Part shown: piece after piece, positions 757 through 34,751 of the stretch
Numbering within the stretch: the first letter of the stretch is position 1
Layout: every line of letters begins with the position of its first letter
NCBI GenBank assembly: GCA_041653515.1
Contig: JBAZFG010000001.1
Span: 74,332-138,331 of the forward strand
Length of the DNA stretch: 64,000 bases
Reading direction: 5' to 3'
DNA from: Candidatus Nanoarchaeia archaeon
GTDB lineage: Archaea > Nanobdellota > Nanobdellia > WJKC01
The notes under the pieces: generated by a model
Told to the model about the DNA's origin: nothing
The model's database searches: none
What the model saw: only the letters and a program-made list of their open reading frames with translations
Position numbers and translations under genes: made by a program

Positions 757-2322
757 AATTTATAATAAAGTTTATTTTAATATTTTACAATGAATGAAGA
801 ATATTATAATTATTGTTTAAAAAATGAGTGCTTTACTAATACTGAATTTAGTGATTACCTTTATTTTAGAAAGATTCCTGATTATATCAAAAATGGGAAA
901 ATTAGGAATGGTTTAATTAAAATTCATAAGAAGTATATCAAATATGTTAAAAGTGAGAATTTTAGTTTTTTTGAAGAATTTAAAAAGTTTAAGATAAGTA
1001 CATCTGATAAATTAATTAAATTTAATGATTCTTTGTTAAAGTTAACAATTAATAAAGACGAATTAAAGTTTTTACTTGATGTTAAAATCTTTTTAGTTAT
1101 CTGCAAAAAAAGAATGGTTTGGCTTAAAAAAAATTTTGATAGTATATTTAATGATTTTAATGATTTCTTAATTGGTAATAAACTAGCTAAAAAGAAGCTA
1201 AAACCTATTGATTGGGGTTTTTTTAAATCAGTGGATTTTTCAGGCGCTTATGGCATGACTTCTCTTTTTTCAAATAAAACTTATTGGGGTCTTTTTTTAA
1301 TCTGCAGTCTTTTAGGATTAGGTGCTTTTAGTTTTGTTTTGTCTTTATTACAAAATTGGAGAAAAAAGTTTATCAGTATTGCTAATGATTTTGTTAGCAT
1401 TACTGATAATGGTGCTGTAAAAACAGGTGAAGTTAAATTACTTCAAGAAGGGACAATTGAATTAGTCTTGATTCATGAGCTCGCCCATTACTATTCAATA
1501 TCCATTTTAGAGACATTATATCAGACGGTTAAGGGTGGCTTAAAAAGATTTAAGGGTAAAGCAATTGATATCAATTCAGAGCAGGAGGGGCTGGCCGAAG
1601 CCTTTGCAATCAGTTTTGCTAAAGCAAAAGGGATAGATTATACTGAGTACTGGGATTGCTCAACTTTTGATTATAAAAGTTATTTTTTCGAAAGAGTTTT
1701 GAAATATGATTCAATTACTGCTATGAAGAAAGTCTTTAATTATGATGATTACAGAGCTTACTCTAAAGAGGTTGTTATTTACCTTGAGAATTTAAAAGTT
1801 GATAGTGAATATTTTAGTGAGAGAGTATCAAAAGGGGGCATATTGAACGGTTTTAAATTGATTAAATCTGGAAAAATGAAAGATGAAGATACTTTGCGTG
1901 TATTATTTGAGATAAAAGACTTATTTTTACGATTTAATCAATTCTTTAGATCATTGAGTTATTATTTAAGCGAAAACTCATATATTTTAAAAAGATTTTT
2001 ATGTGCTCTTGGGGTTACTAGAAATAAGGATTTTAAGAATTGTGTAGATGAATTACTTGGTTTGACTGAAAATCAATATTCTTTTTTAAAGAACAAGGAT
2101 CATAATACCTTTTTATCTGAAGATAACCAGATTACTTTTTTAAGTAATTTGAATAATTTAGTGCGTAAAGTTAATGAATTAGAAAAAAAGAAGTTAAATA
2201 TTGATGCTGACGTAATTAATATTGTTTTGAATGCTTTAAAAAATATTAAATTGTTATTGAAAGGTTAGTTTTTAAGATGGTAACAATATTTCTCTAGCGC
2301 CAAGAATAGACACTGAGTAAAA
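733..2322 (+). mobile_element. 1.54 kb AT-rich insertion flanked by a perfect 26-bp direct repeat (733-758 and 2297-2322) that duplicates the last 8 codons and stop of PCNA
   Basis: gcgccaagaatagacactgagtaaaa occurs twice and the second copy still encodes LAPRIDTE*. The interior is visibly more AT-rich than the flanks and carries one ORF (790-2268). Confidence 0.6.
790..2268 (+). CDS. hypothetical membrane-anchored protein with HExxH zinc-metallopeptidase-like motif (HELAHYY, downstream EGLAEAF); cargo of the insertion
   Basis: 492 aa ORF, Lys/Asn/Phe/Ile-rich with very low GC. It has one predicted TM helix (YWGLFLICSLLGLGAFSFVLSLL) and an HEXXH motif. Confidence 0.5.
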   Translation: MNEEYYNYCLKNECFTNTEFSDYLYFRKIPDYIKNGKIRNGLIKIHKKYIKYVKSENFSFFEEFKKFKISTSDKLIKFNDSLLKLTINKDELKFLLDVKIFLVICKKRMVWLKKNFDSIFNDFNDFLIGNKLAKKKLKPIDWGFFKSVDFSGAYGMTSLFSNKTYWGLFLICSLLGLGAFSFVLSLLQNWRKKFISIANDFVSITDNGAVKTGEVKLLQEGTIELVLIHELAHYYSISILETLYQTVKGGLKRFKGKAIDINSEQEGLAEAFAISFAKAKGIDYTEYWDCSTFDYKSYFFERVLKYDSITAMKKVFNYDDYRAYSKEVVIYLENLKVDSEYFSERVSKGGILNGFKLIKSGKMKDEDTLRVLFEIKDLFLRFNQFFRSLSYYLSENSYILKRFLCALGVTRNKDFKNCVDELLGLTENQYSFLKNKDHNTFLSEDNQITFLSNLNNLVRKVNELEKKKLNIDADVINIVLNALKNIKLLLKG

Positions 2323-2898: not shown

Positions 2899-4536
2899 AT
2901 GAAAACAATTAAGGGTAATTTAGTTGATGTTGATAAGAATGAGATTTACCCTGTTATCATTAAGTATGATACTAAGGTGCGACAAATTAATCGCTTGAAT
3001 GAGCCTTGTGATAATTTCATCCTGCCCGGCTTGATTGACGCTCACATTCATATTGAGAGCACAATGCTCACGCCGAGCCGTTTTGCTGAAGTAGTTATCC
3101 CACATGGCACTGTGGCAACAGTCTCTGACCCGCATGAGATAGCTAACGTGGCAGGGGTTAAGGGGGTTAAGTTCATGATTCATGACTCGCCAAGAGAAAT
3201 GAAATTAAATTATACAGCACCCAGTTGTGTGCCTGCCACCCAGTTTGAGACTTCAGGTGCAGAACTTGATTCAAAAAAAGTCAAACAATTATTAAAACTA
3301 AAGCAAGTAGTCGCGCTCGGTGAAGTAATGAATTATCCTGGGGTGATTAATCGTGACCCTGAATTAATGCGCAAGATAAGATTTGCTCGTTTAGCTGGTA
3401 AAAGGGTTGATGGTCACGCGCCAATGCTAACTGGCTTAAACCTTGATAAGTATATTAGTGCTGGCATAACAACCGAGCATGAGTCAACCAGTTATAAGGA
3501 AGGGCTTGAGAAATTAAGGAAAGGTATGAAATTAATGATAAGACAGGGGTTCTCTGAGCATAACATGCCTGACTTAATTCAGTTAGCGCGCCAATACCCT
3601 GATGATTGTTTTATTGTCAGTGATGACCGACACGCGCCTGATTTAGTGAGAGGTCATATTGATGAATTATTACGGCAAGCAGTGGCTTTGGGTCTTGACC
3701 CATTAATAGCTGTTAAGTGCTGCACTAAGAACCCGTCAATTCATTACGGGTTGAATACTGGTTTAATAAGGGTTGGCTTATCAGCTGATTTCGTGGTGGT
3801 TAATGACTTATGCCACTTCTATGTTGAGCAAGTAATAATTAATGGCCAATTAGTGGCTGAAAAAGGTGAATGCTTGGTTAAGTTTAAACAACATAATTTT
3901 CCATTAAGAATTAATTATTACCCATTAAGGAGGGATGATTTTGTTATTAAAGCTGATAGTGATTTTGTTAACGCCCGCGTAATAGGTATAATTAGGCGTC
4001 AGATAATAACTAAGGATTTAACAATGCGATTAAAGGTTAAGAATGGTTTGTTAATGCCTGATGAAAGTAAGGGTGTTAGTTATCTGGCTGTTGTTAATCG
4101 TTATAAAAAAACTAGTCCTGCCATGGCTTTAGTTAAGGGCTTATGGGTTGACGGTGCTATTGCGAGCAGTGTTAGCCATGATAGTCATAATATTATTGTT
4201 ACAGGCAATGACCCTGATGACATGCTTAAAGCAGTTAGGTTAGTGATGCGTCACGGCGGCTTAGCTTTTGCCAGCGGCAAGAAATCCTTTGTTGTCCCGC
4301 TTGAAGTAGCTGGGTTAATGACTAATAAACCATTAAATAAATTACTTGATGAATTATCCACTATTAAGAAAATGGTGCGGTCAGCTGATTGCGCGCTTGC
4401 CTCACCGTTCATGCAATTAAGTTTCCTCGCGTTACTAGTTATTCCTGAATTAAAACTAAGTGATAAAGGCTTGTTTGATGCTAAACGTTTTTGTTTAATT
4501 AAGCCCGAACAACGATTTAAAGAAATTAATGATTGA
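2899..4536 (+). CDS. ade: adenine deaminase (amidohydrolase superfamily)
   Basis: LIDAHIHIES…PHGTVATVSDPHEIANV metal-binding motifs typical of adenine deaminase, with a ~545 aa length. Confidence 0.85.
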   Translation: MKTIKGNLVDVDKNEIYPVIIKYDTKVRQINRLNEPCDNFILPGLIDAHIHIESTMLTPSRFAEVVIPHGTVATVSDPHEIANVAGVKGVKFMIHDSPREMKLNYTAPSCVPATQFETSGAELDSKKVKQLLKLKQVVALGEVMNYPGVINRDPELMRKIRFARLAGKRVDGHAPMLTGLNLDKYISAGITTEHESTSYKEGLEKLRKGMKLMIRQGFSEHNMPDLIQLARQYPDDCFIVSDDRHAPDLVRGHIDELLRQAVALGLDPLIAVKCCTKNPSIHYGLNTGLIRVGLSADFVVVNDLCHFYVEQVIINGQLVAEKGECLVKFKQHNFPLRINYYPLRRDDFVIKADSDFVNARVIGIIRRQIITKDLTMRLKVKNGLLMPDESKGVSYLAVVNRYKKTSPAMALVKGLWVDGAIASSVSHDSHNIIVTGNDPDDMLKAVRLVMRHGGLAFASGKKSFVVPLEVAGLMTNKPLNKLLDELSTIKKMVRSADCALASPFMQLSFLALLVIPELKLSDKGLFDAKRFCLIKPEQRFKEIND

Positions 4537-6003
4537 GTCAAGAATTGTTGGTTGTGATAATGCTTCCAGTTCAGCGAACTCATCATACTCAGCTGATAGT
4601 GAGTCACTCGCCCCAACCATTGTCGGCGCTCTTTCAGCATTAAGGCTGGACGCTTGGTCAACACCTTTCAGTAAGTAGTAGTAAACATTGCCTGTAACAC
4701 TCATGTTTAATTCCCAGTCACTGGTTGTGATATAAGGGTTAATAAAATCCCTTAATTTTTCAACAGCTAGCGTCATGTTATTATCATCAAGGGTTACTGA
4801 TGAGTAAACCCTATCATTAGTTATAACAAAATTACTGCCCCAATAATAAGGTCGTAATAATAATTCATCATCACTAATGCTTCTAACACCGGTCTCAGGC
4901 GCGAACACTTGAATGTAGGGCTCTGTTATCGTAACTTGATAATTATCTTTATAATAAAAAGTATTCATTATATCCTTGCTTGAATCAAAATCACTTAATA
5001 GTGCTGTGTTAAAATTAAAGTTATCAATAATCACTTCACCCTGCAATGAGTAATCATCGCTTGTTAGAGTCAGGCTGTAACCAGGGAAGTACTCATTGAG
5101 CACTGAATTAACCCAGTCACTGATTTTTTGCGCATCAAGTTCCTCACCATAAGCGCTGGCAACTATTTTTCCTTTAGCGCCGATAATGCCATAAACATTC
5201 AGGTAAGCCTGGTCATTATAAGCTGAGAAATAAACTCTTGTTTTGTCCTTGTAAATACCATAACAATTAGTGTCAATTTCAGGATAATAATAATCCCTCA
5301 TGCTTAAGTCACAATTAAGGCTTGTTGATAATGAAGCTAAATCATAACTGCCAGTTGAGTAACCAGTGAATAAGTACTTGACTTCATCGCTGAAGTAATT
5401 AACGTAATCAACACTGCTAACAACGAATTCTTTAATCATTGAAGTGCTGGTCTTAATAACAATTGAGCAATAATCATTATTAAAATATTTTTCACCATTA
5501 AGTGTTTCATAATAACTTCTTAATTCATCGCAGTCACCGCTTAATTGAATGTAATACTCATCGTTTGTCCCATTAACAACGTAATCAGCGTATTTTTCTT
5601 TTAATGAATAACCAATCATATTCATTTCTCTGTCGTTAAATAAGACACTATAATCATTAGTGCTTGAAGTGTAGAATGAAGCGCTCACTGACTTACCAGT
5701 AATGCTTGACTCACTTTCCTTGAACAAGAAATTAATGTTAATGCTCTGGTAATCGCCATAAGAGTAACAGTAAGAATTAGTCACGTTGCTAAATGCGTAA
5801 GGGCTCATGTTTAATTCTTCAATTAACGGGCCTTTTATTGATTCAATGAAAACCGGTGAAACATTGCACTCACTCTCAACGCCTCTTGAATCAACTGAGA
5901 TTAATGCAGGGCTTGATGCGGTTGATTCAGCTAAGACAACGCTCATTAACATCAAAATAATTAGCAAGACTGCTTTTCTCATAGTTTTAGTAGTAATCAG
6001 CAC
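4495..6003 (-). CDS. secreted Tyr/Ser/Asn-rich protein with N-terminal signal peptide
   Basis: MRKAVLLIILMLMSVVLAESTASS signal peptide, followed by a 502 aa low-complexity extracellular-like sequence. Convergent 42-nt overlap with ade. Confidence 0.5.
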   Translation of the reverse strand: MLITTKTMRKAVLLIILMLMSVVLAESTASSPALISVDSRGVESECNVSPVFIESIKGPLIEELNMSPYAFSNVTNSYCYSYGDYQSININFLFKESESSITGKSVSASFYTSSTNDYSVLFNDREMNMIGYSLKEKYADYVVNGTNDEYYIQLSGDCDELRSYYETLNGEKYFNNDYCSIVIKTSTSMIKEFVVSSVDYVNYFSDEVKYLFTGYSTGSYDLASLSTSLNCDLSMRDYYYPEIDTNCYGIYKDKTRVYFSAYNDQAYLNVYGIIGAKGKIVASAYGEELDAQKISDWVNSVLNEYFPGYSLTLTSDDYSLQGEVIIDNFNFNTALLSDFDSSKDIMNTFYYKDNYQVTITEPYIQVFAPETGVRSISDDELLLRPYYWGSNFVITNDRVYSSVTLDDNNMTLAVEKLRDFINPYITTSDWELNMSVTGNVYYYLLKGVDQASSLNAERAPTMVGASDSLSAEYDEFAELEALSQPTILDSIINFFKSLFGLN

Positions 6004-6074: not shown

Positions 6075-6353
6075 ATGTTATCAAACATACCAATTGACTT
6101 GAAGAAAGTCAGTAGTAACAGCATTGATAAGGAAGTCCTGCGCCTTGGCATGATTGCTGAGCTTGACGCTGTCAGCTTATACGAGCAATTAGCTGCTATG
6201 GCTACTAATAATAAAGTAAAGAAAGTGCTTCTTGACATTGCTAAAGAAGAGAAAACTCATATGGGCGAGTTCCAAACACTATTGTTAGGGCTTGATAAAG
6301 AGCAGGAACAAGAGTTAAAGAACGGCGAGAAAGAAGTTAAAAGCCTAACATAA
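6075..6353 (+). CDS. small ferritin-like/rubrerythrin-type diiron-motif protein (EncFtn-like, 92 aa)
   Basis: AELDAVSLYEQ … AKEEKTHMGEF (E…EExxH) ferritin-like iron-ligand pattern. Confidence 0.5.
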   Translation: MLSNIPIDLKKVSSNSIDKEVLRLGMIAELDAVSLYEQLAAMATNNKVKKVLLDIAKEEKTHMGEFQTLLLGLDKEQEQELKNGEKEVKSLT

Positions 6354-6388
6354 GAGTTTTTAAACCACTGTGGATAATCTTTTTAATT

Positions 6389-7069
6389 ATGAAATTAGGT
6401 ATTTTATTCTCTGGCGGTAAGGATTCAACTCTAGCTTTGCTTAAAGCAAGAAAACAACATGAAATTGCTTGTCTTATTAGCGTTGTGTCAAGAAACCCTG
6501 ATAGTTATATGTTCCACGTCCCAAACATTCATTTAACACAGCTCCAATCAGAAGCGTTAAGCATTCCGTTATTAACACAAGAGACAAAGGGTGTTAAGGA
6601 ATTAGAGTTAGCTGACTTAAGAAAAGCATTCATTAAAGCCAAAACGGATTATGGTATTGAGGGAATTGTAACTGGCGCTATCAGGTCAGTTTATCAGGCG
6701 AGCCGCGTCCAGCGCTTATGTGATGAGCTTGGTTTATGGTGTTTTAATCCTTTATGGCTGATTGACCAGTTAGAGCTGCTTAACGAAACATTGCTTAATG
6801 GTTTTAAAACCATTATTTCAGGCGTGGCTGGTTACCCTTTTACTAAGGATTTTCTTGGCCAAATAATTGATGAAGGAATTATTAGTAAATTAAAGTCTTT
6901 TCAAGAAAAATTCCTTATTAACCCCGCTGGTGAAGGCGGTGAGCTTGAGACAACAGTTCTTGACTGCCCATTATTCAGTAAGCAAATAGAAATATTGGAT
7001 AGTGATACTTCATTTGATAATTACGCTGGTGTTTTTAATGTAAATAAAGCAAGGTTGGTGAGTAAATGA
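6389..7069 (+). CDS. dph6: Dph6-like diphthine-ammonia ligase / MJ0570-family PP-loop ATP pyrophosphatase
   Basis: SGGKDS PP-loop, EGGELET motif, ~226 aa; collinear with the MJ0570 family. Confidence 0.75.
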   Translation: MKLGILFSGGKDSTLALLKARKQHEIACLISVVSRNPDSYMFHVPNIHLTQLQSEALSIPLLTQETKGVKELELADLRKAFIKAKTDYGIEGIVTGAIRSVYQASRVQRLCDELGLWCFNPLWLIDQLELLNETLLNGFKTIISGVAGYPFTKDFLGQIIDEGIISKLKSFQEKFLINPAGEGGELETTVLDCPLFSKQIEILDSDTSFDNYAGVFNVNKARLVSK

Positions 7070-7509
7070 TTTTATTAATTAATACTTGCGCTGATAAGTT
7101 AAGCGAGCACGAATTTGTTAAGCCAATCAAAGCATTAGTTCATGATGAGTGTTTCATTAAGCATTACTCTGAATTAACTAATAATGATTTATTGGTTGCT
7201 GATAAAATAATTATTTGCGGCACAGCGCTAATGGATTTTGATTACCTTAAAGGTGATTGGTCATGGATTAAAGCTTTTAATAAACCAGTGTTGGGCATCT
7301 GCGCCGGCTTCCAAGTGATTGCCCTGGAACTAGGCAAGGAACTAGTTGATAAGAAAATGATTGGGGTCTTTGACCATAATTATTTTGTTACCTCAAAACT
7401 AGTTGAGGGTGGCGTTACTGAATTAAGGCAGGGCTTATTCACTGCTTACGCTTTCCATCCTGAAGTCCTTAACCCTGAGCTTATTTCAGGATTCTGCCGG
7501 TCTCAATAA
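7066..7509 (+). CDS. class I glutamine amidotransferase domain protein (short, 147 aa)
   Basis: GICAGFQ nucleophile-elbow Cys and FHPE His-Glu motif. ATGA 4-nt overlap with the upstream PP-loop gene. Confidence 0.6.
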   Translation: MILLINTCADKLSEHEFVKPIKALVHDECFIKHYSELTNNDLLVADKIIICGTALMDFDYLKGDWSWIKAFNKPVLGICAGFQVIALELGKELVDKKMIGVFDHNYFVTSKLVEGGVTELRQGLFTAYAFHPEVLNPELISGFCRSQ

Positions 7510-8086
7510 ACCAGAGAACCAAATCCAGTTCCGCTAAATTACTTCCTAATAACTTTAATTGTTCTTCAATCAGCAAGTAATTATTCTTGTTTAAGACTTT
7601 TGGCTTCTTTATTATTCCTTCCCGTTCAAGCAGGTCAAGTATGTGAAAATCAATTATTGCCACGTTATTAAAACCAATGTTTCTCATGAAGTGGCTTGCT
7701 TCTTTCATACCTAAACCCTTGACGTTCTTAACTAACCACTCGCGTAATTCTGGTTCATTAAGAGAACTTATTCTTTCTTTTAGTTGTTCTATTACTTTTC
7801 TTGCTCCAATAATGAACTCAGCTCTCTTATTTGGGAACCGGTGGCTTAATTCCTTAAGTCTTAATGATAATTCCTCTTGACTTAATTCAAGGAACCCATT
7901 ACCAATTAACTTTTGAATCCGAATGGACCGTTCAGCATTAAAATTAGCTGTTAATAAACAAAAGCATAATTCATTGAATAATTTCTTACTGCTGGCTTTT
8001 TTAAGAACTTGAAACTCGCTTAAACGCTGTTTAAGTAATCCATCTTGTTTAACTCTCACTTTTTGCATTTTTTCAAGCAGGCTCAT
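7481..8086 (-). CDS. ogg: 8-oxoguanine DNA glycosylase/AP lyase, archaeal Ogg2-type (HhH-GPD)
   Basis: ~200 aa; HhH segment LGMKEASHFMRNIG…DFHI and size match archaeal Ogg. Confidence 0.6.
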   Translation of the reverse strand: MSLLEKMQKVRVKQDGLLKQRLSEFQVLKKASSKKLFNELCFCLLTANFNAERSIRIQKLIGNGFLELSQEELSLRLKELSHRFPNKRAEFIIGARKVIEQLKERISSLNEPELREWLVKNVKGLGMKEASHFMRNIGFNNVAIIDFHILDLLEREGIIKKPKVLNKNNYLLIEEQLKLLGSNLAELDLVLWFIETGRILK

Positions 8087-8640
8087 TTCTTAACCTCAAC
8101 TACTTTTTTGTTTGGGAAGCAGGCTTCGTAGAGTAATGTGCCTGTTAATTTGGGAACTTTGATTTTTTTATTAACCCACTTATTGCCTTTGCGGTAACTC
8201 ATGATTCCTTTGATAAACAGATTATAAGCGCCTTCAACGCAACTGTCATACTTCCGTGATTTTAACAGCAGTTCCCCGGCGAATAATAATTCCTTGTCTT
8301 TCAAGTGCTTGTTAATGAAATCATTTAATTGCTTGGCTGCCTGTTCTTGTTTGTTATAATCATTAGTTATGCTCATCGGCACTGGGTCGCCGCGTGGCGT
8401 AATTATCAACTCGGTTTTTTTTGGTTTCACTTTGCTTAACCAAGCCTTAGTCTCACTTTCAGCTTCCTTTGAAGTGAACACTAATGAGTCATATTCCTTT
8501 AATGCTTTCTTAACGTTGGTTAAGTAACGCTTGTATGAACCCTTAAGGTTTTTATTAATCTTGAAAGTCCATTTATTAGTAAGTTCTTCTTTGAGCAGGT
8601 CACCGCTGTAACCAGGGTGAATCAGGATTAATAGTTTCAT
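8083..8640 (-). CDS. hypothetical protein (185 aa)
   Basis: ORF overlapping ogg by 4 nt. No family recognised. Confidence 0.4.
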   Translation of the reverse strand: MKLLILIHPGYSGDLLKEELTNKWTFKINKNLKGSYKRYLTNVKKALKEYDSLVFTSKEAESETKAWLSKVKPKKTELIITPRGDPVPMSITNDYNKQEQAAKQLNDFINKHLKDKELLFAGELLLKSRKYDSCVEGAYNLFIKGIMSYRKGNKWVNKKIKVPKLTGTLLYEACFPNKKVVEVKK

Positions 8641-8675
8641 AAACTAAAATTAAAAAAATAGGAGTTAAAATAGTT

Positions 8676-9056
8676 TTATGCTTGCCATAAGCCATGAATG
8701 TTGCATAATTCTCGTGCAGTAACTTTGGTTGCTTTAATGCAGAACGTTGCTTCAGGTTTATCGCCTGGTTTTAAATGCTTGCGGTAAACAATGTTGTCAG
8801 CGATTAATTCAATCCACTCAATGTAATGTTTCTCTTCCATTGGGTGCATTACTGAGCCAACCTTAATCTTGTAGCCATCAATGGTTTGCTCAATCACTGG
8901 CACATGCTTTTCAGCCCCAACATCTTTTATTTTCTCTTGTTTTAGTTCCATTGGTTGGCCGCAACAAACCAGTTCGCCAACACCTTTATGAATTACTTCA
9001 ACAATATTCCCGCAGACATTGCACTTATAGACTTGTTTAATTTCAGTCATAATCAA
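8676..9056 (-). CDS. dfx: desulfoferrodoxin (superoxide reductase, 2Fe-SOR)
   Basis: N-terminal CxxC…CC desulforedoxin-like site plus EKHVP / [17 protein letters not shown] centre; ~125 aa. Confidence 0.85.
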
Positions 9057-25158: not shown

Positions 25159-25340
25159 ATCATTAATGGGTGTATTAGTGGGTTCTTATCATACTCGACC
25201 GCAGGGAGAAGTATCCCCCTTCAGTCTTGAGAAACCCTGATTCCCCCTCTACGTTTATTTTGTCTTAATGGCGTTACTGATTAATTCCTTGAATTTTCTT
25301 ATCATTAGTGGGTGGATTAATGGGTTCTTGTCGTAATTGA
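25159..25340 (+). repeat. ~40-bp imperfect direct repeat (25159-25198 / 25301-25340, ~85% identity) flanking a GC-rich core (25199-25254) that contains ctgattccccctc
   Basis: The copy inside the gene encodes …YDKNPLIHPLMI of the radical-SAM/ArcS protein. The distal copy encodes the same peptide followed by an alternative tail, RAFRDKMRTELQ*. Confidence 0.65.
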
Positions 25341-26514
25341 TTTTATTCATTAATTGCTCGTCGCATAAATCTACTAATTTTATCCCCAGTTCCTTGCACG
25401 CGTTCTTCAAGCACTGACCTGACTCACTCTTTGGTTTATAATAAGAGAATACTTGCTCGTACTTATGAGCTGTTAAGTAATCCTTGACCCGTTGAGTGTT
25501 AATCCTAACATACTCTTTCATTACTTCTGGCGTCTCGTTCCGCTCATCCCAGTCGTAAGCGTTGAATGGGTACTTGTCAGCGAACTCAATTGGGATAACC
25601 CCTGGGTTGCTGATAACAATAATATGAGTATTCTTATACCAATCAAAACCAGTAATAGCGCGCCTGATTGAAACATGCGTCCGACTATTATAATAAGGCT
25701 TCTTCTTACTGCAAGGCAAGAACAAAGCAATAGTTTTGTTCAACGGCTTATTATACAAACGAACCAAGTAATCCTGCCAAACGTTAAAGTGAGGGTGAGT
25801 CACGAACTCAACCCCAACGCCATTTAAATCAGCCTTCTTCTCTAACGGGAATTTAGGCACGAACGCATAATTATTCGGCTCTAACTGAACGCTCTCATAC
25901 TTTTTTGTTCGCTTAAAAAACTCTTGCTCACTAATAGGCTTCCACTCACCTGCCACCCATAAATCAAACAAGCCTGACCTGGCGTGAGGAAAAGTATTAA
26001 TCAACACTATTTCATTACTATACTCGCGCGCTAAGGCAACGCTTTTATCCAATAACCCATCATAATCAAACGGGTGATTAATCAATAAGTATGACTTAAC
26101 TTTGAAGCCATGAGCGTGAACTCGCTCACAAGCCCTCTTATAAGCCTCAACCGTGATGCCCTTGTTTAATTTCTTCAATACTTCATTATCACCAGCCTCA
26201 AGCCCAATCGCCACTACTAATTTGACACCTTTGAACAAAGAGAGTTTCTCGTCAGTCACGTACTCTGGTCTTGACTCAATATACAAGACTCGACCCTGCA
26301 TTACTTTAGCCACATGAGTCTGGAATTTAATTGGGAATTGACAGTCATCCAATAATGAGCCACTGCAGAATAATTTAACATCACCCTCACCACTCTCCCT
26401 ATCAAACCTGTCAATTAACTCATTAGCACTAATATTAACATCATCCTTACCCCAACCACAAAACAAACACTTACCCCAAGAGCACTTGCCGGCGTTTAAC
26501 ACAATCTCTTTCAT
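25255..26514 (-). CDS. radical-SAM domain protein fused to an ArcS-type catalytic domain (PC-X3-KPY-X2-S-X2-H); putative archaeosine (G+) synthesis enzyme
   Basis: N-terminal Cys cluster CSWGKCLFC (Cx4Cx2C) and C-terminal LPCSKKKPYYNSRTH matching the ArcS signature. Divergent from arcTGT. Start placed at Met 26514 (MKEIVLNAGKC) to avoid overlap with tgtA. Confidence 0.6.
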   Translation of the reverse strand: MKEIVLNAGKCSWGKCLFCGWGKDDVNISANELIDRFDRESGEGDVKLFCSGSLLDDCQFPIKFQTHVAKVMQGRVLYIESRPEYVTDEKLSLFKGVKLVVAIGLEAGDNEVLKKLNKGITVEAYKRACERVHAHGFKVKSYLLINHPFDYDGLLDKSVALAREYSNEIVLINTFPHARSGLFDLWVAGEWKPISEQEFFKRTKKYESVQLEPNNYAFVPKFPLEKKADLNGVGVEFVTHPHFNVWQDYLVRLYNKPLNKTIALFLPCSKKKPYYNSRTHVSIRRAITGFDWYKNTHIIVISNPGVIPIEFADKYPFNAYDWDERNETPEVMKEYVRINTQRVKDYLTAHKYEQVFSYYKPKSESGQCLKNACKELGIKLVDLCDEQLMNKINYDKNPLIHPLMIRKFKELISNAIKTK

Positions 26515-26566
26515 AAAAAAATGGAATCCGTAACACTTTTTAAATACCTTGCGTATCACTTTGTTC

Positions 26567-28216
26567 ATGTCATTTGAAATCAAGGACCACGACGGCCTCG
26601 GCCGATTAGGCGTACTGACTGTTAACAATAAGTCAATCACTACACCTAACATTGCGGTAGTCATTAACCCTAATGACTTAACCATCCCCCCTGAAGAAAT
26701 GATGCGTGACTTCGGGGTTGATTTAATTATCACTAACGCCTACATTATTAAAAACTCAAAAAAAGCCAAGGACATTGAAGCTAAAGGATTGCACGAATAC
26801 CTTAATTTCCCCGGCATTATTTACACTGACTCAGGCACTTACCAGATGTTTAGCAAGGGCGGTGCTGCCATCACTAACGAGGAAACACTCGCTTACCAAA
26901 CTAAAATTGGGAGTGATATCCACACGCCACTTGATTTATTCACACTGCCAGATGATGACAGGGCAACCGCAGTCAGCAAACTTACTGAAACAATCAAGCG
27001 GATTAAAGCCATAAGAACAACTAATTTCTCAGCCCCAATACAAGGCGGCTCGTTCATGGACCTGCGAGCTAAAGCCTGCAAAGAACTAGCCAAGGTTAAA
27101 CCAACTGTTTACCCAATTGGCGGTATCGTACCATTAATGATTAGCTATGATTTTAAACGATTAATTGAAGTAATCCTTGAGTGCAAAAAACACTTACCCT
27201 TAAACACACCTGTTCACGCTTTCGGCGCTGGTCACCCGCTTATCTTTGCCTTACTCGCTTACGCAGGAGTTGACTTATTTGACAGCGCTAGTTACGCGTT
27301 ATACGCCAAGGAAGCTAAGTACATCACTGAGACTGGCACAATGAAAGTGGATGAGTTAGTCTCACTGCCTTGTAATTGCCCTATTTGCGCTAAGCATAAG
27401 CCAAGCGATTTGCGCGACGTTGGCTTACTAGCCCGACATAACTTGCACGCCTTAATGAGAGAAGTAAGGTTAGTTAGACAAGCCATTCAGCAAGACCGAT
27501 TATTTGAATTAGTAATGTCAAGAGCGATGAGCCACCCAAACGTTTACTTTGCGTTTAAACGATTGCTTGAGTATAAAGAATTAATCAGCGAGCATAACCC
27601 TATTCGTAAGAGAAACGCTTTATTCTGGACTGGAGCTTTGAGTAGTGAGCGACCTGAGATTAATTATGCTAATAACCAACTTAAATTACTTAAACTAAAA
27701 AAAGCACCCAAACCATTAAAACTAGTTTACCCTTTTGGTCAGAACGTTGGCTGGAGTATTGATTATTCAGTAAAAAATTATGATGACTTAGCAACCCTTC
27801 GATTAATGGCTGATTACCAATTCGGTGCTGGCGCTGGACTAAAATTAATCCCTGACAATGTCACCATTATTAAAAGCCGTAACCAGCGATTACATGAAGT
27901 ATTACTTAAAAATGAATTATTATTCATCGTCCGCGCCCGTGATGGTTACTTTGCACTACATAAAGCTGGCGCGAAACGATTAAAACAATACTTAAAAAAA
28001 GTGGTCGCGCCAGATGAATATAAAGAGTTTTACCAAAAAGGCGGCGACGTGTTCGCCAAACACGTGCTTAAAGCAAACAACATTAAGCCGCGCGAGGAAG
28101 TCGGTGTTTATTGCGGCAAAGAATTAGTCGGGGTCGGCGAGGCAACACTATCAAGCCGTGAGATGATTGTTTTTGATAAAGGCGTGGCTGTTAAGACACG
28201 TGAAGGAATAAAATAA
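26567..28216 (+). CDS. tgtA: archaeosine tRNA-guanine transglycosylase (arcTGT) with C-terminal PUA domain
   Basis: MSFEIKDHDGLGRLG N-terminus, Zn site CNCPICAKH, ~550 aa. Confidence 0.9.
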   Translation: MSFEIKDHDGLGRLGVLTVNNKSITTPNIAVVINPNDLTIPPEEMMRDFGVDLIITNAYIIKNSKKAKDIEAKGLHEYLNFPGIIYTDSGTYQMFSKGGAAITNEETLAYQTKIGSDIHTPLDLFTLPDDDRATAVSKLTETIKRIKAIRTTNFSAPIQGGSFMDLRAKACKELAKVKPTVYPIGGIVPLMISYDFKRLIEVILECKKHLPLNTPVHAFGAGHPLIFALLAYAGVDLFDSASYALYAKEAKYITETGTMKVDELVSLPCNCPICAKHKPSDLRDVGLLARHNLHALMREVRLVRQAIQQDRLFELVMSRAMSHPNVYFAFKRLLEYKELISEHNPIRKRNALFWTGALSSERPEINYANNQLKLLKLKKAPKPLKLVYPFGQNVGWSIDYSVKNYDDLATLRLMADYQFGAGAGLKLIPDNVTIIKSRNQRLHEVLLKNELLFIVRARDGYFALHKAGAKRLKQYLKKVVAPDEYKEFYQKGGDVFAKHVLKANNIKPREEVGVYCGKELVGVGEATLSSREMIVFDKGVAVKTREGIK

Positions 28217-28698: not shown

Positions 28699-28769
28699 GC
28701 GTTCGTAGTCTAGTGGTAGGATCTCAGCCTTCCAAGCTGATGACCTGGGTTCGAATCCCAGCGAGCGCA
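28699..28769 (+). tRNA. tRNA-Gly (anticodon UCC)
   Basis: Cloverleaf read by eye: acceptor GCGTTCG/CGAGCGC, anticodon loop CUUCCAA, T-arm GGGTTCGAATCCC; no encoded CCA. Confidence 0.85.
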
Positions 28770-33893: not shown

Positions 33894-34586
33894 ATGGATT
33901 TAATTGAATTATTGAAGGATAAGAAGGCTATCTTGTTTGATTGGGATGGAGTCTTGTTTAATTCATTGCCTGCTCATTTGAAGCACGCTAAGCATTGCTG
34001 TGAGGCGCGCGGCATTATTAATCACCCTGTTTTTGAGTCAATGAAGGCTTATCGTGAGTTCCTGAGTGATTGCCCGGGCCATTTCTCTGAGATTTATAAA
34101 AAACTAGGCATTGATTACATGCTTAATCATGAGCAAATAACTAATGATTTCATTAAGTTCATGAATGATTCTTCTCTTGAATTATTTGACGGCGCTTATG
34201 AATTGCTTTGTGATTTAAAAGAGCATTACTTGGTTGGCTTGGTTACTTCATCATTCCGCGAGAGTGTTATCCCGCGTTTGCCTTATGGTTTTAATTTTCA
34301 TAGTGAAGTTTTTGCTGGCGAGGCAGCGTCAAAACCAGCGCCTAACGGCATCATTAAGTGCTTGGCTGAGCTTGACGTTAAACCTGAGGAAGCGGTTTAC
34401 GTTGGTGACATGATTAGTGATGCCCAAGCAGCTAGTGCTGCAGGGGTTAGTTTCATTGGTGTGACGTATGGTTATAATAATCATCAAGCACTGGCAGCCC
34501 AACCGCACTTATTAATTGTTGACAGTGTCGAAACGCTTAAAAAGACCCTGCTTACTTATAGTAGATTGTCAGCGACCATAACTTAA
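33894..34586 (+). CDS. HAD-superfamily hydrolase
   Basis: Motif I LFDWDGVLFNS and motif IV GDMISD. The 3' end overlaps the 5S rRNA. Confidence 0.75.
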   Translation: MDLIELLKDKKAILFDWDGVLFNSLPAHLKHAKHCCEARGIINHPVFESMKAYREFLSDCPGHFSEIYKKLGIDYMLNHEQITNDFIKFMNDSSLELFDGAYELLCDLKEHYLVGLVTSSFRESVIPRLPYGFNFHSEVFAGEAASKPAPNGIIKCLAELDVKPEEAVYVGDMISDAQAASAAGVSFIGVTYGYNNHQALAAQPHLLIVDSVETLKKTLLTYSRLSATIT

Positions 34587-34682
34587 GGGGTACCACCCGT
34601 TCTCATCCCGAACACGGAAGTTAAGCCTTTAAGTGTTATAACCTGTACTGTGTAATACATGGGAACGTTATAAGTTGCCGAC
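34568..34682 (+). rRNA. 5S ribosomal RNA (stand-alone)
   Basis: CCACCCGTTCTCATCCCGAACACGGAAGTTAAGC matches the universal 5S helix II/III-loop C region. Terminal helix GTCAGCGAC/GTTGCCGAC; ~115 nt. Confidence 0.8.
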
Positions 34683-34751
34683 ATCTATTTTTTTTTAAAT
34701 TACACTAGTGCTAACTAAGAACTTTTATAAAATAGTACATTTTACTATAGA

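Follow-up and report, generated by a model that had tools for sequence, protein, structure and literature searches.

Diphthamide is a conserved modification of the elongation factor EF-2 in archaea and eukaryotes and is targeted by diphtheria toxin. The last step of its synthesis is catalogued as an ammonia ligase reaction (EC 6.3.1.14), and the physiological nitrogen donor is still a loose end. Here, we analyze a small class I glutamine amidotransferase (GATase) gene which overlaps the 3′ end of dph6, the gene for diphthine–ammonia ligase, at positions 6389–7509 of a 64,000-nucleotide stretch of the genome of a Candidatus Nanoarchaeia archaeon (contig JBAZFG010000001.1 of assembly GCA_041653515.1; hereafter, the window). 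An earlier reading made from the sequence alone (the sequence-only reading) had suggested that the pair forms a two-subunit diphthamide synthetase (or other amidoligase) which depends on glutamine and resembles split GMP synthase. Comparative genomics strongly supports this proposal, through the adjacency of the two genes in 75 of 80 genomes, the existence of natural fusions, and the low scores of the GATase against GMP synthase subunit A (GuaAa).

The closest described system is the two-subunit archaeal GMP synthetase of M. jannaschii and P. horikoshii, which likewise combines a small class I GATase (GuaAa) with a PP-loop ATP pyrophosphatase (GuaAb), and for which adenylation, ammonia tunnelling, and allosteric activation have been described (bioRxiv 10.1101/2022.02.27.481963). 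The GATases of the two systems belong to the same structural subgroup, and both systems exist naturally in split and fused versions. However, the partner in the window is Dph6 (PF01902) rather than GuaAb, and the acceptor is a modified histidine on EF-2 rather than xanthosine monophosphate. The domain order differs as well, the GATase being C-terminal in Dph6 fusions but N-terminal in the two-domain GMP synthetases of the PDB. Finally, the Dph6-linked GATase is set off from GuaAa by an N-terminal motif of its own, by scores far under the GuaAa cut-off, and by a length that can be as little as 143–147 aa.

On the Dph6 side, the window protein is an orthologue of the enzymes grouped under EC 6.3.1.14 (yeast YLR143W; archaeal PF0828, PH1257, and MJ0570). 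The characterised yeast Dph6 is classed as an ammonia ligase and has C-terminal RidA/YjgF-like domains and no GATase (PMC3541065), whereas in the window dph6 is coupled to the gene of a dedicated class I GATase. A comparative study of 2012 discussed the variable ammonia source of DUF71/Dph6 proteins, including AsnB/GAT-II fusions and the eukaryotic RidA domains, and found that DUF71 genes are generally not clustered with dph2 and dph5 (PMC3541065). That study describes no class I GATase partner, since amidotransferase appears in it only as a keyword and as the GAT-II domain (PMC3541065). The AsnB(GAT-II)–DUF71 fusions of Methanohalophilus, Methanosalsum, and Nanosalinarum (PMC3541065) embody the same idea of a GATase feeding ammonia to DUF71/Dph6. 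These fusions are rare and carry a class II (Ntn) GAT together with a second PP-loop domain at the N-terminus, and it is ambiguous which PP-loop domain receives the ammonia. In contrast, the class I triad GATase of the window type is C-terminal or encoded downstream, is widespread (about 240 clusters), and comes without a second PP-loop domain.

A comparable division of labor is found in pairs of a small stand-alone GATase and an ATP-dependent ligase such as MurT/GatD, where GatD belongs to the CobB/CobQ-like GATase group, MurT is an ATP-dependent enzyme of the Mur ligase fold, and the murT and gatD genes are co-transcribed. The stand-alone glutaminase GatD is reported to form a complex with MurT which amidates lipid II (PMC3266927, PMC5871853); the ligase family and the substrate are other than those of the window pair. 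No GATase partner is mentioned in a survey of archaeal dph genes from 2018 (PMC6143161), and our full-text searches uncovered no publication in the library covered that connects diphthine or Dph6 to a class I GATase, a glutaminase, or glutamine dependence. The architecture uniting a class I GATase with a PP-loop ATP pyrophosphatase is already known; its use in diphthamide synthesis, with a GATase family of its own, appears to be undescribed.

The dph6–GATase gene pair

The dph6 gene (6389–7069, plus strand) encodes a 226-aa PP-loop ATP pyrophosphatase of the MJ0570/PF0828/PH1257 family, which would be the synthetase subunit. The protein scores 258 bits against the NCBIfam model TIGR03679 (Dph6_archaeal), above the equivalog cut-off of 197.3, and 221.7 bits (E-value 1.1e-65) against Pfam PF01902, for which the threshold is 23.2. 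Solved structures are matched at 161 bits (PH1257, PDB 2d13) and 159 bits (PF0828, PDB 3rjz). The PP-loop motif SGGKDS (residues 8–13) and the motif GEGGELET near residue 181 are kept in PH1257 and in all aligned orthologues, and SYM(F/Y)H, YQ, and GEGGExET are conserved between the window protein and PH1257. Judged by these matches, the product is a bona fide, orthodox archaeal Dph6, and the initial description of a Dph6-like PP-loop enzyme is borne out.

The second gene (7066–7509, plus strand) encodes a short-form class I GATase of 147 aa, the proposed glutaminase subunit, which is 100% identical to MFA5405821.1 from a metagenome-assembled genome of Candidatus Nanoarchaeia, a DPANN archaeon. 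Its ATG and the TGA of dph6 share the four bases ATGA (7066–7069), so that the start/stop overlap noted at the outset could be read directly from the sequence as a translational coupling junction. A Shine–Dalgarno-like GGTGA within the 3′ end of dph6 (7057–7061, plus strand), 4 nt ahead of the GATase ATG, probably acts in this coupling. No TATA-like element of its own can precede the GATase gene because its start falls within dph6. A TATA-box-like element, TTTTTAAA, read from the sequence at 6357–6364 (plus strand) about 29 nt before the dph6 ATG, is a candidate archaeal promoter, from which both genes would be transcribed together with a short leader or none at all. The gene upstream of dph6 (6075–6353), coding for a small ferritin-like/EncFtn-type protein, ends at 6353, and the gene downstream of the GATase (7481–8086), whose product is an Ogg-HhH/AGOG glycosylase, is transcribed convergently and shares 29 nt with the 3′ end of the GATase gene; dph6 and the GATase gene therefore form a two-gene operon.

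Against Pfam PF00117, the 147-aa protein scores 29.4 bits (gathering threshold 22.8) in an alignment confined to residues 68–116, whereas longer members of its family match this model more fully. The nucleophile elbow LGICAGFQ (G77-I-C79-A-G81-F-Q83) and the FHPE motif (H131-P-E133) contain the catalytic residues Cys79 (codon 7300–7302), His131 (7456–7458), and Glu133 (7462–7464). An alignment of 29 diverse stand-alone homologues shows no variation at Gly77, Cys79, Gly81, and Glu133 and at least 90% conservation at His131. Further invariant residues are specific to the family (E16, F17, V18, P20, T53, L55, D57, W67, and Y106), and the invariant N-terminal motif SxxEFVxP is peculiar to it. The AlphaFold2 (AF2) model of the 147-aa protein has a pLDDT of 95.0 and a pTM of 0.90, and in Foldseek it matches GuaAa, PabA, and TrpG with probability 1.00 and TMq of 0.66–0.74. 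Both the sequence and the model thus identify the product of 7066–7509 as a class I triad GATase. As for the earlier description of a 147-aa class I GATase with intact Cys and His-Glu residues, the triad stands, with the correction that the domain is not full length. The protein lacks about 33 residues, roughly one beta-hairpin, which are present in the 170–185-aa family members, and thus falls short of a full-length GATase core (about 170–190 aa, including the strands between Cys and His). Similar short forms of 143–159 aa occur among other DPANN homologues.

Conservation of the gene context

The sequence-only reading had called for a survey of gene neighborhoods, which we carried out from both sides. 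Scanning of the GTDB set, with one genome per species, using the GATase alignment alone yielded 80 archaeal loci, in which the neighboring Dph6 was located by tblastn and extension of open reading frames (ORFs). In 75 of these loci, Dph6 is encoded upstream on the same strand: with the same 4-nt overlap as in the window (n = 52), as a single in-frame Dph6–GATase ORF in Methanothrix/Methanotrichaceae (n = 5), with a gap of at most 400 nt (n = 10), or at a distance of 0.9–3.1 kb (n = 8). Dph6 is missing from the flank in the other five. The same 4-nt overlap was found in 54 of 83 homologous loci. Such an overlap is by itself common between co-directional prokaryotic genes; the pairing is more than chance because it is kept across the 75 genomes, with the identical overlap in 52 and gene fusion in five. 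The labelled taxa comprise DPANN archaea (Nanoarchaeota, Woesearchaeota, Pacearchaeota, Aenigmatarchaeota, and Iainarchaeum) as well as Nitrososphaeria, Bathyarchaeia, Methanothrix/Methanotrichaceae, Methanomicrobiales, Archaeoglobaceae, and Thermoplasmatota.

As a control from the Dph6 side, 80 metagenome loci were retrieved with a Dph6 alignment headed by PH1257, ignoring the GATase, and 63 of them could be evaluated. A GATase of this family is encoded directly downstream of Dph6 in 16 of the 63 loci (approximately 25%), and the other 47 have no family GATase within about 4 kb. No other recurrent neighbor which might serve as an ammonia source was found among the 47 unlinked Dph6 genes, the commonest one being present in seven. 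Thus, the GATase is nearly always accompanied by Dph6, whereas Dph6 is only sometimes accompanied by the GATase, as fits an accessory subunit. Nearest-neighbor concordance amounts to 52 of 63, yet linked and unlinked Dph6 sequences intermix, with identities of 73–82% in some cross pairs. The linked Dph6 is therefore a normal orthologue; a separate paralogous clade of GATase-linked Dph6 can be ruled out.

This intermixing also bears on the possibility that the pair is a glutamine-dependent amidoligase acting on an acceptor other than diphthine–EF-2, with the putative Dph6 being a DUF71 paralogue comparable to the DUF71 subgroup proposed to act in B12 salvage. The DUF71 family is indeed not isofunctional (PMC3541065), archaeal Dph6 has never been assayed (PMC8305020), and dph2, dph5, and the EF-2 gene were not found in the 64-kb window. 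However, the score of the window protein lies above the Dph6 equivalog cut-off, the GATase-linked Dph6 sequences, that of the window included, are 40–46% identical to PH1257, and the PF0828 structure matched by the window protein is the one on which the 2012 study modelled Dph6. Furthermore, the SY, YQ, and GEGGExET positions, which form the predicted EF-2 interface (PMC3541065), are kept, and no B12 gene context was seen in the window. Taken with identities of up to 82% between linked and unlinked Dph6, these points render a different acceptor very unlikely.

Several of the loci surveyed have additional features. In a Nitrososphaeria metagenome-assembled genome (GCA_029776065.1, L001:4324-9990), the neighbors of the overlapping Dph6–GATase pair are a glutamine synthetase gene and a glutamate synthase-like gene set with GXGXG/Glu_synthase and GATase_6/7 ORFs, which makes this a nitrogen-assimilation neighborhood. 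In eight loci labelled as Pacearchaeota, Woesearchaeota, or “uncultured archaeon” (L015, L032, L045, L049, L053 (3120-3869), L054, L059, and L079), the GATase gene is followed by one for a conserved, roughly 247-aa protein whose LDxGCGxNG motif resembles that of S-adenosylmethionine-dependent methyltransferases; in five loci, this gene overlaps the GATase stop codon or starts within 0–10 nt of it, and in three it is 220–630 nt away. This protein was rejected as a general third component of the operon, being lineage-specific, absent from the window, and without a Pfam match. A 237-aa protein encoded between the Dph6 and GATase genes in two loci (L003 and L018) also remained unmatched in Pfam. 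It should be noted that some taxonomic labels are questionable. A contig labelled “Candidatus Acidiferrales bacterium” (DASPPK010000075.1) carries a typical archaeal Dph6–GATase pair with a 4-nt overlap and is probably a mis-binned archaeal contig. A number of records titled “uncultured Methanosarcinales” also look like mislabelled DPANN genomes, one of them a 774-kb “chromosome” (L066).

Natural Dph6–GATase fusions

Two of the Methanothrix fusion ORFs were confirmed by translation; they encode proteins of 441 and 465 aa with linkers rich in Pro, Gly, and Glu. In a protein search with one fusion, the PF01902+PF28410+PF00117 architecture recurred in more than 90 clusters. Among them are proteins of about 43% identity from Aenigmarchaeota (P0201) and Micrarchaeota (P0204), whose linkers are unrelated.

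For structural modelling, the natural fusion P0201 (Aenigmarchaeota, 421 aa, 104 aligned sequences) was used in place of the heterodimer of the window. The AF2 model has a pLDDT of 95.3 and a pTM of 0.93; for a protein of 225+180 residues, such a pTM means that the two domains are confidently fixed relative to each other. The model therefore depicts a single rigid two-domain body and implies a fixed interface. In Foldseek searches, the N-terminal domain matches PH1257/PF0828 (TMt 0.93) and the C-terminal domain matches GATases of the GuaAa type (TMt about 0.76); among the matches listed, no PDB entry spans both domains.

The GATase family is distinct from GuaAa

The profile of the Dph6-associated GATase was searched against 1.84 billion representative proteins, and the top 150 matches score 157–231 bits. 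Clustered at 50% identity, the matches amount to 240 clusters at E-values of at most 1e-30, 603 at 1e-10, and 3885 at 1e-3. By this measure, the Dph6-associated GATases form a discrete family separate from GATases in general. Neither NCBIfam nor Pfam has a dedicated model for this family, and its members carry a variety of database names, including “hypothetical,” “GMP synthase subunit A,” “TIGR00289 family,” and plain “diphthine--ammonia ligase.”

These names raise the question, already posed by the sequence-only reading as its own refutation, of whether the 147-aa protein is simply a GuaAa whose GuaAb partner is encoded elsewhere in the genome, its place after dph6 being incidental. GuaAa is the best-scoring named family in NCBIfam for all 29 family members tested and also provides the best PDB match, and JGI and some NCBI records call the homologues “GMP synthase.” However, the window protein scores only 29.4 bits against the GuaAa model NF001975, far below the equivalog cut-off of 198 bits, and even the best of the 29 members reaches an E-value of no better than 1.1e-19 against this model. 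Compared with M. jannaschii GuaAa, the family profile scores 58 bits and aligns over positions 72–175 alone; the first approximately 70 residues cannot be aligned to GuaAa and carry the family-specific invariant motif. The gene context is also inconsistent with an incidental placement, given the adjacency to Dph6 in 75 of 80 genomes and the in-frame fusions to Dph6 in at least three lineages. The window itself holds neither a PP-loop ORF with an SGGxDS motif other than dph6, such as a GuaAb-like one, nor a second GATase ORF, and hence no alternative partner for either protein of the pair. Collectively, the score, the partial alignment, and the gene context lead us to reject GuaAa as the identity of the window GATase, and we regard the pairing with a distant GuaAb as extremely improbable; the point on which the sequence-only reading would have fallen is thus largely refuted.

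This distinction has consequences for genome annotation. In databases, hundreds of records of this GATase bear the name “GMP synthase subunit A” or “hypothetical protein,” and its fusions with Dph6 are listed simply as “diphthine--ammonia ligase.” The “GMP synthase” calls in DPANN genomes could imply a capacity for purine biosynthesis which is not present.

A candidate glutamine-dependent diphthamide synthetase

The GATase is very probably a functional partner of Dph6. It is best seen as an accessory subunit which makes a ligase that uses ammonia dependent on glutamine instead, as in other PP-loop amidoligases. Under the mechanism which we propose, dph6 and the GATase gene encode a heteromeric glutamine-hydrolyzing diphthamide synthetase. 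Dph6 would adenylate the diphthine carboxylate on EF-2 with ATP, as the characterised yeast homologue does, while the GATase would bind Dph6 and hydrolyze glutamine via Cys79/His131/Glu133; the nascent ammonia would then pass to the acyl-adenylate, yielding diphthamide, AMP, pyrophosphate, and glutamate. The analogy with two-subunit GMP synthetase, as found in M. jannaschii, suggests that substrate-loaded Dph6 may allosterically activate the GATase. The split Dph6 and GATase presumably form a physical complex, and the same analogy leads us to expect channelling of ammonia between the active sites. That the mechanism operates in full with the trimmed protein of the window is likely, although we hold this with less assurance than the partnership itself.

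Several observations weigh against this scheme. Archaeal Dph6 is without experimental characterisation to date (PMC8305020). Five of the 80 GATase loci have no Dph6 within 3–6 kb, and no PP-loop partner was found near them. The window GATase carries Thr in place of the His found in most members in the conserved YxLH(N/S) strand; together with the deletion of approximately 33 residues, this substitution makes activity less certain than in the long forms. Finally, in one clade of fusions (P0214, P0216, P0222, P0226, and P0227), GICAG is replaced by GIGSG while FHPE is kept. The replacement removes the catalytic Cys nucleophile, and hence the GATase domain can persist without glutaminase chemistry. 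This clade may have reverted to the use of ammonia or may carry a pseudo-GATase; the gene for one GIGSG fusion, in GCA_016291305.1 (L164:4001-5422), adjoins genes for P-II (glnK) and an ammonium transporter (amt).

The last two observations would also suit a GATase without catalytic function which, at least as the 147-aa form, serves Dph6 in a structural or regulatory capacity and, for example, stabilizes Dph6 or gates its use of free ammonia. Yet, Cys79 and Glu133 do not vary across the 29 stand-alone members, other short forms included, and His131 is conserved in at least 90%, a pattern unlike that of a dead enzyme; the AF2 and Foldseek analyses also give the short form a confident GATase core fold. 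A non-catalytic role is therefore unlikely, if somewhat less so than a different acceptor; the retained triad and the confident fold point to catalytic competence of the trimmed form.

The glutamine-dependent scheme suggests that many archaea draw the final nitrogen of diphthamide from glutamine, rather than from free ammonia as in the yeast system. A dedicated and widespread glutaminase subunit, fused to Dph6 in organisms labelled as Methanothrix, offers a concrete candidate for the nitrogen source and, if confirmed, would represent a new PP-loop amidotransferase activity. More speculatively, the class I GATase could be the ancestral partner of Dph6. The synthetase would then have begun as a two-subunit glutamine-dependent enzyme (an undescribed EC 6.3.5.x activity), which was kept in DPANN, Thermoproteota, Halobacteriota, and Thermoplasmatota and lost repeatedly elsewhere. 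We consider this evolutionary scenario doubtful, though appreciably more plausible than any of the rival functions discussed above. If it is true, the RidA-like domains of eukaryotic Dph6 are a later replacement for nitrogen supply, and the 143–147-aa DPANN proteins are among the smallest catalytically active triad GATases.

Other features of the window

The G+C content of the window is 36%. The dph6 operon sits among genes of an oxidative-stress type (6075–9056): the ferritin-like protein encoded upstream is a 92-aa EncFtn/rubrerythrin-like protein (6075–6353), the convergent downstream gene (7481–8086, minus strand) codes for an AGOG-type 8-oxoguanine glycosylase, and a desulfoferrodoxin/superoxide reductase is encoded at 8676–9056 (minus strand). 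Several sizeable ORFs match nothing in Pfam or NCBIfam, namely, those at 790–2268 (plus strand, 492 aa), 4495–6003 (minus strand, 502 aa), and 8083–8640 (minus strand, 185 aa). Of their products, that of 502 aa has an N-terminal hydrophobic segment and is rich in Asn, Ser, and Tyr, which suggests a surface protein.

Further along the window, at 25255–28216, a gene for a radical-SAM protein with a DUF5591 domain (minus strand, RaSEA-like) lies head to head with a gene for an archaeosine tRNA-guanine transglycosylase (TGT+C2+PUA, plus strand). From their domain content, the two look like an archaeosine-pathway pair; their ORFs overlap by approximately 185 nt because the transglycosylase ORF, with its TTG start, is probably over-extended. 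A tRNA-Gly(TCC) gene is located at 28699–28769, and a stand-alone 5S rRNA gene (34568–34683) starts within the last 19 nt of an ORF for a HAD hydrolase (33894–34586).

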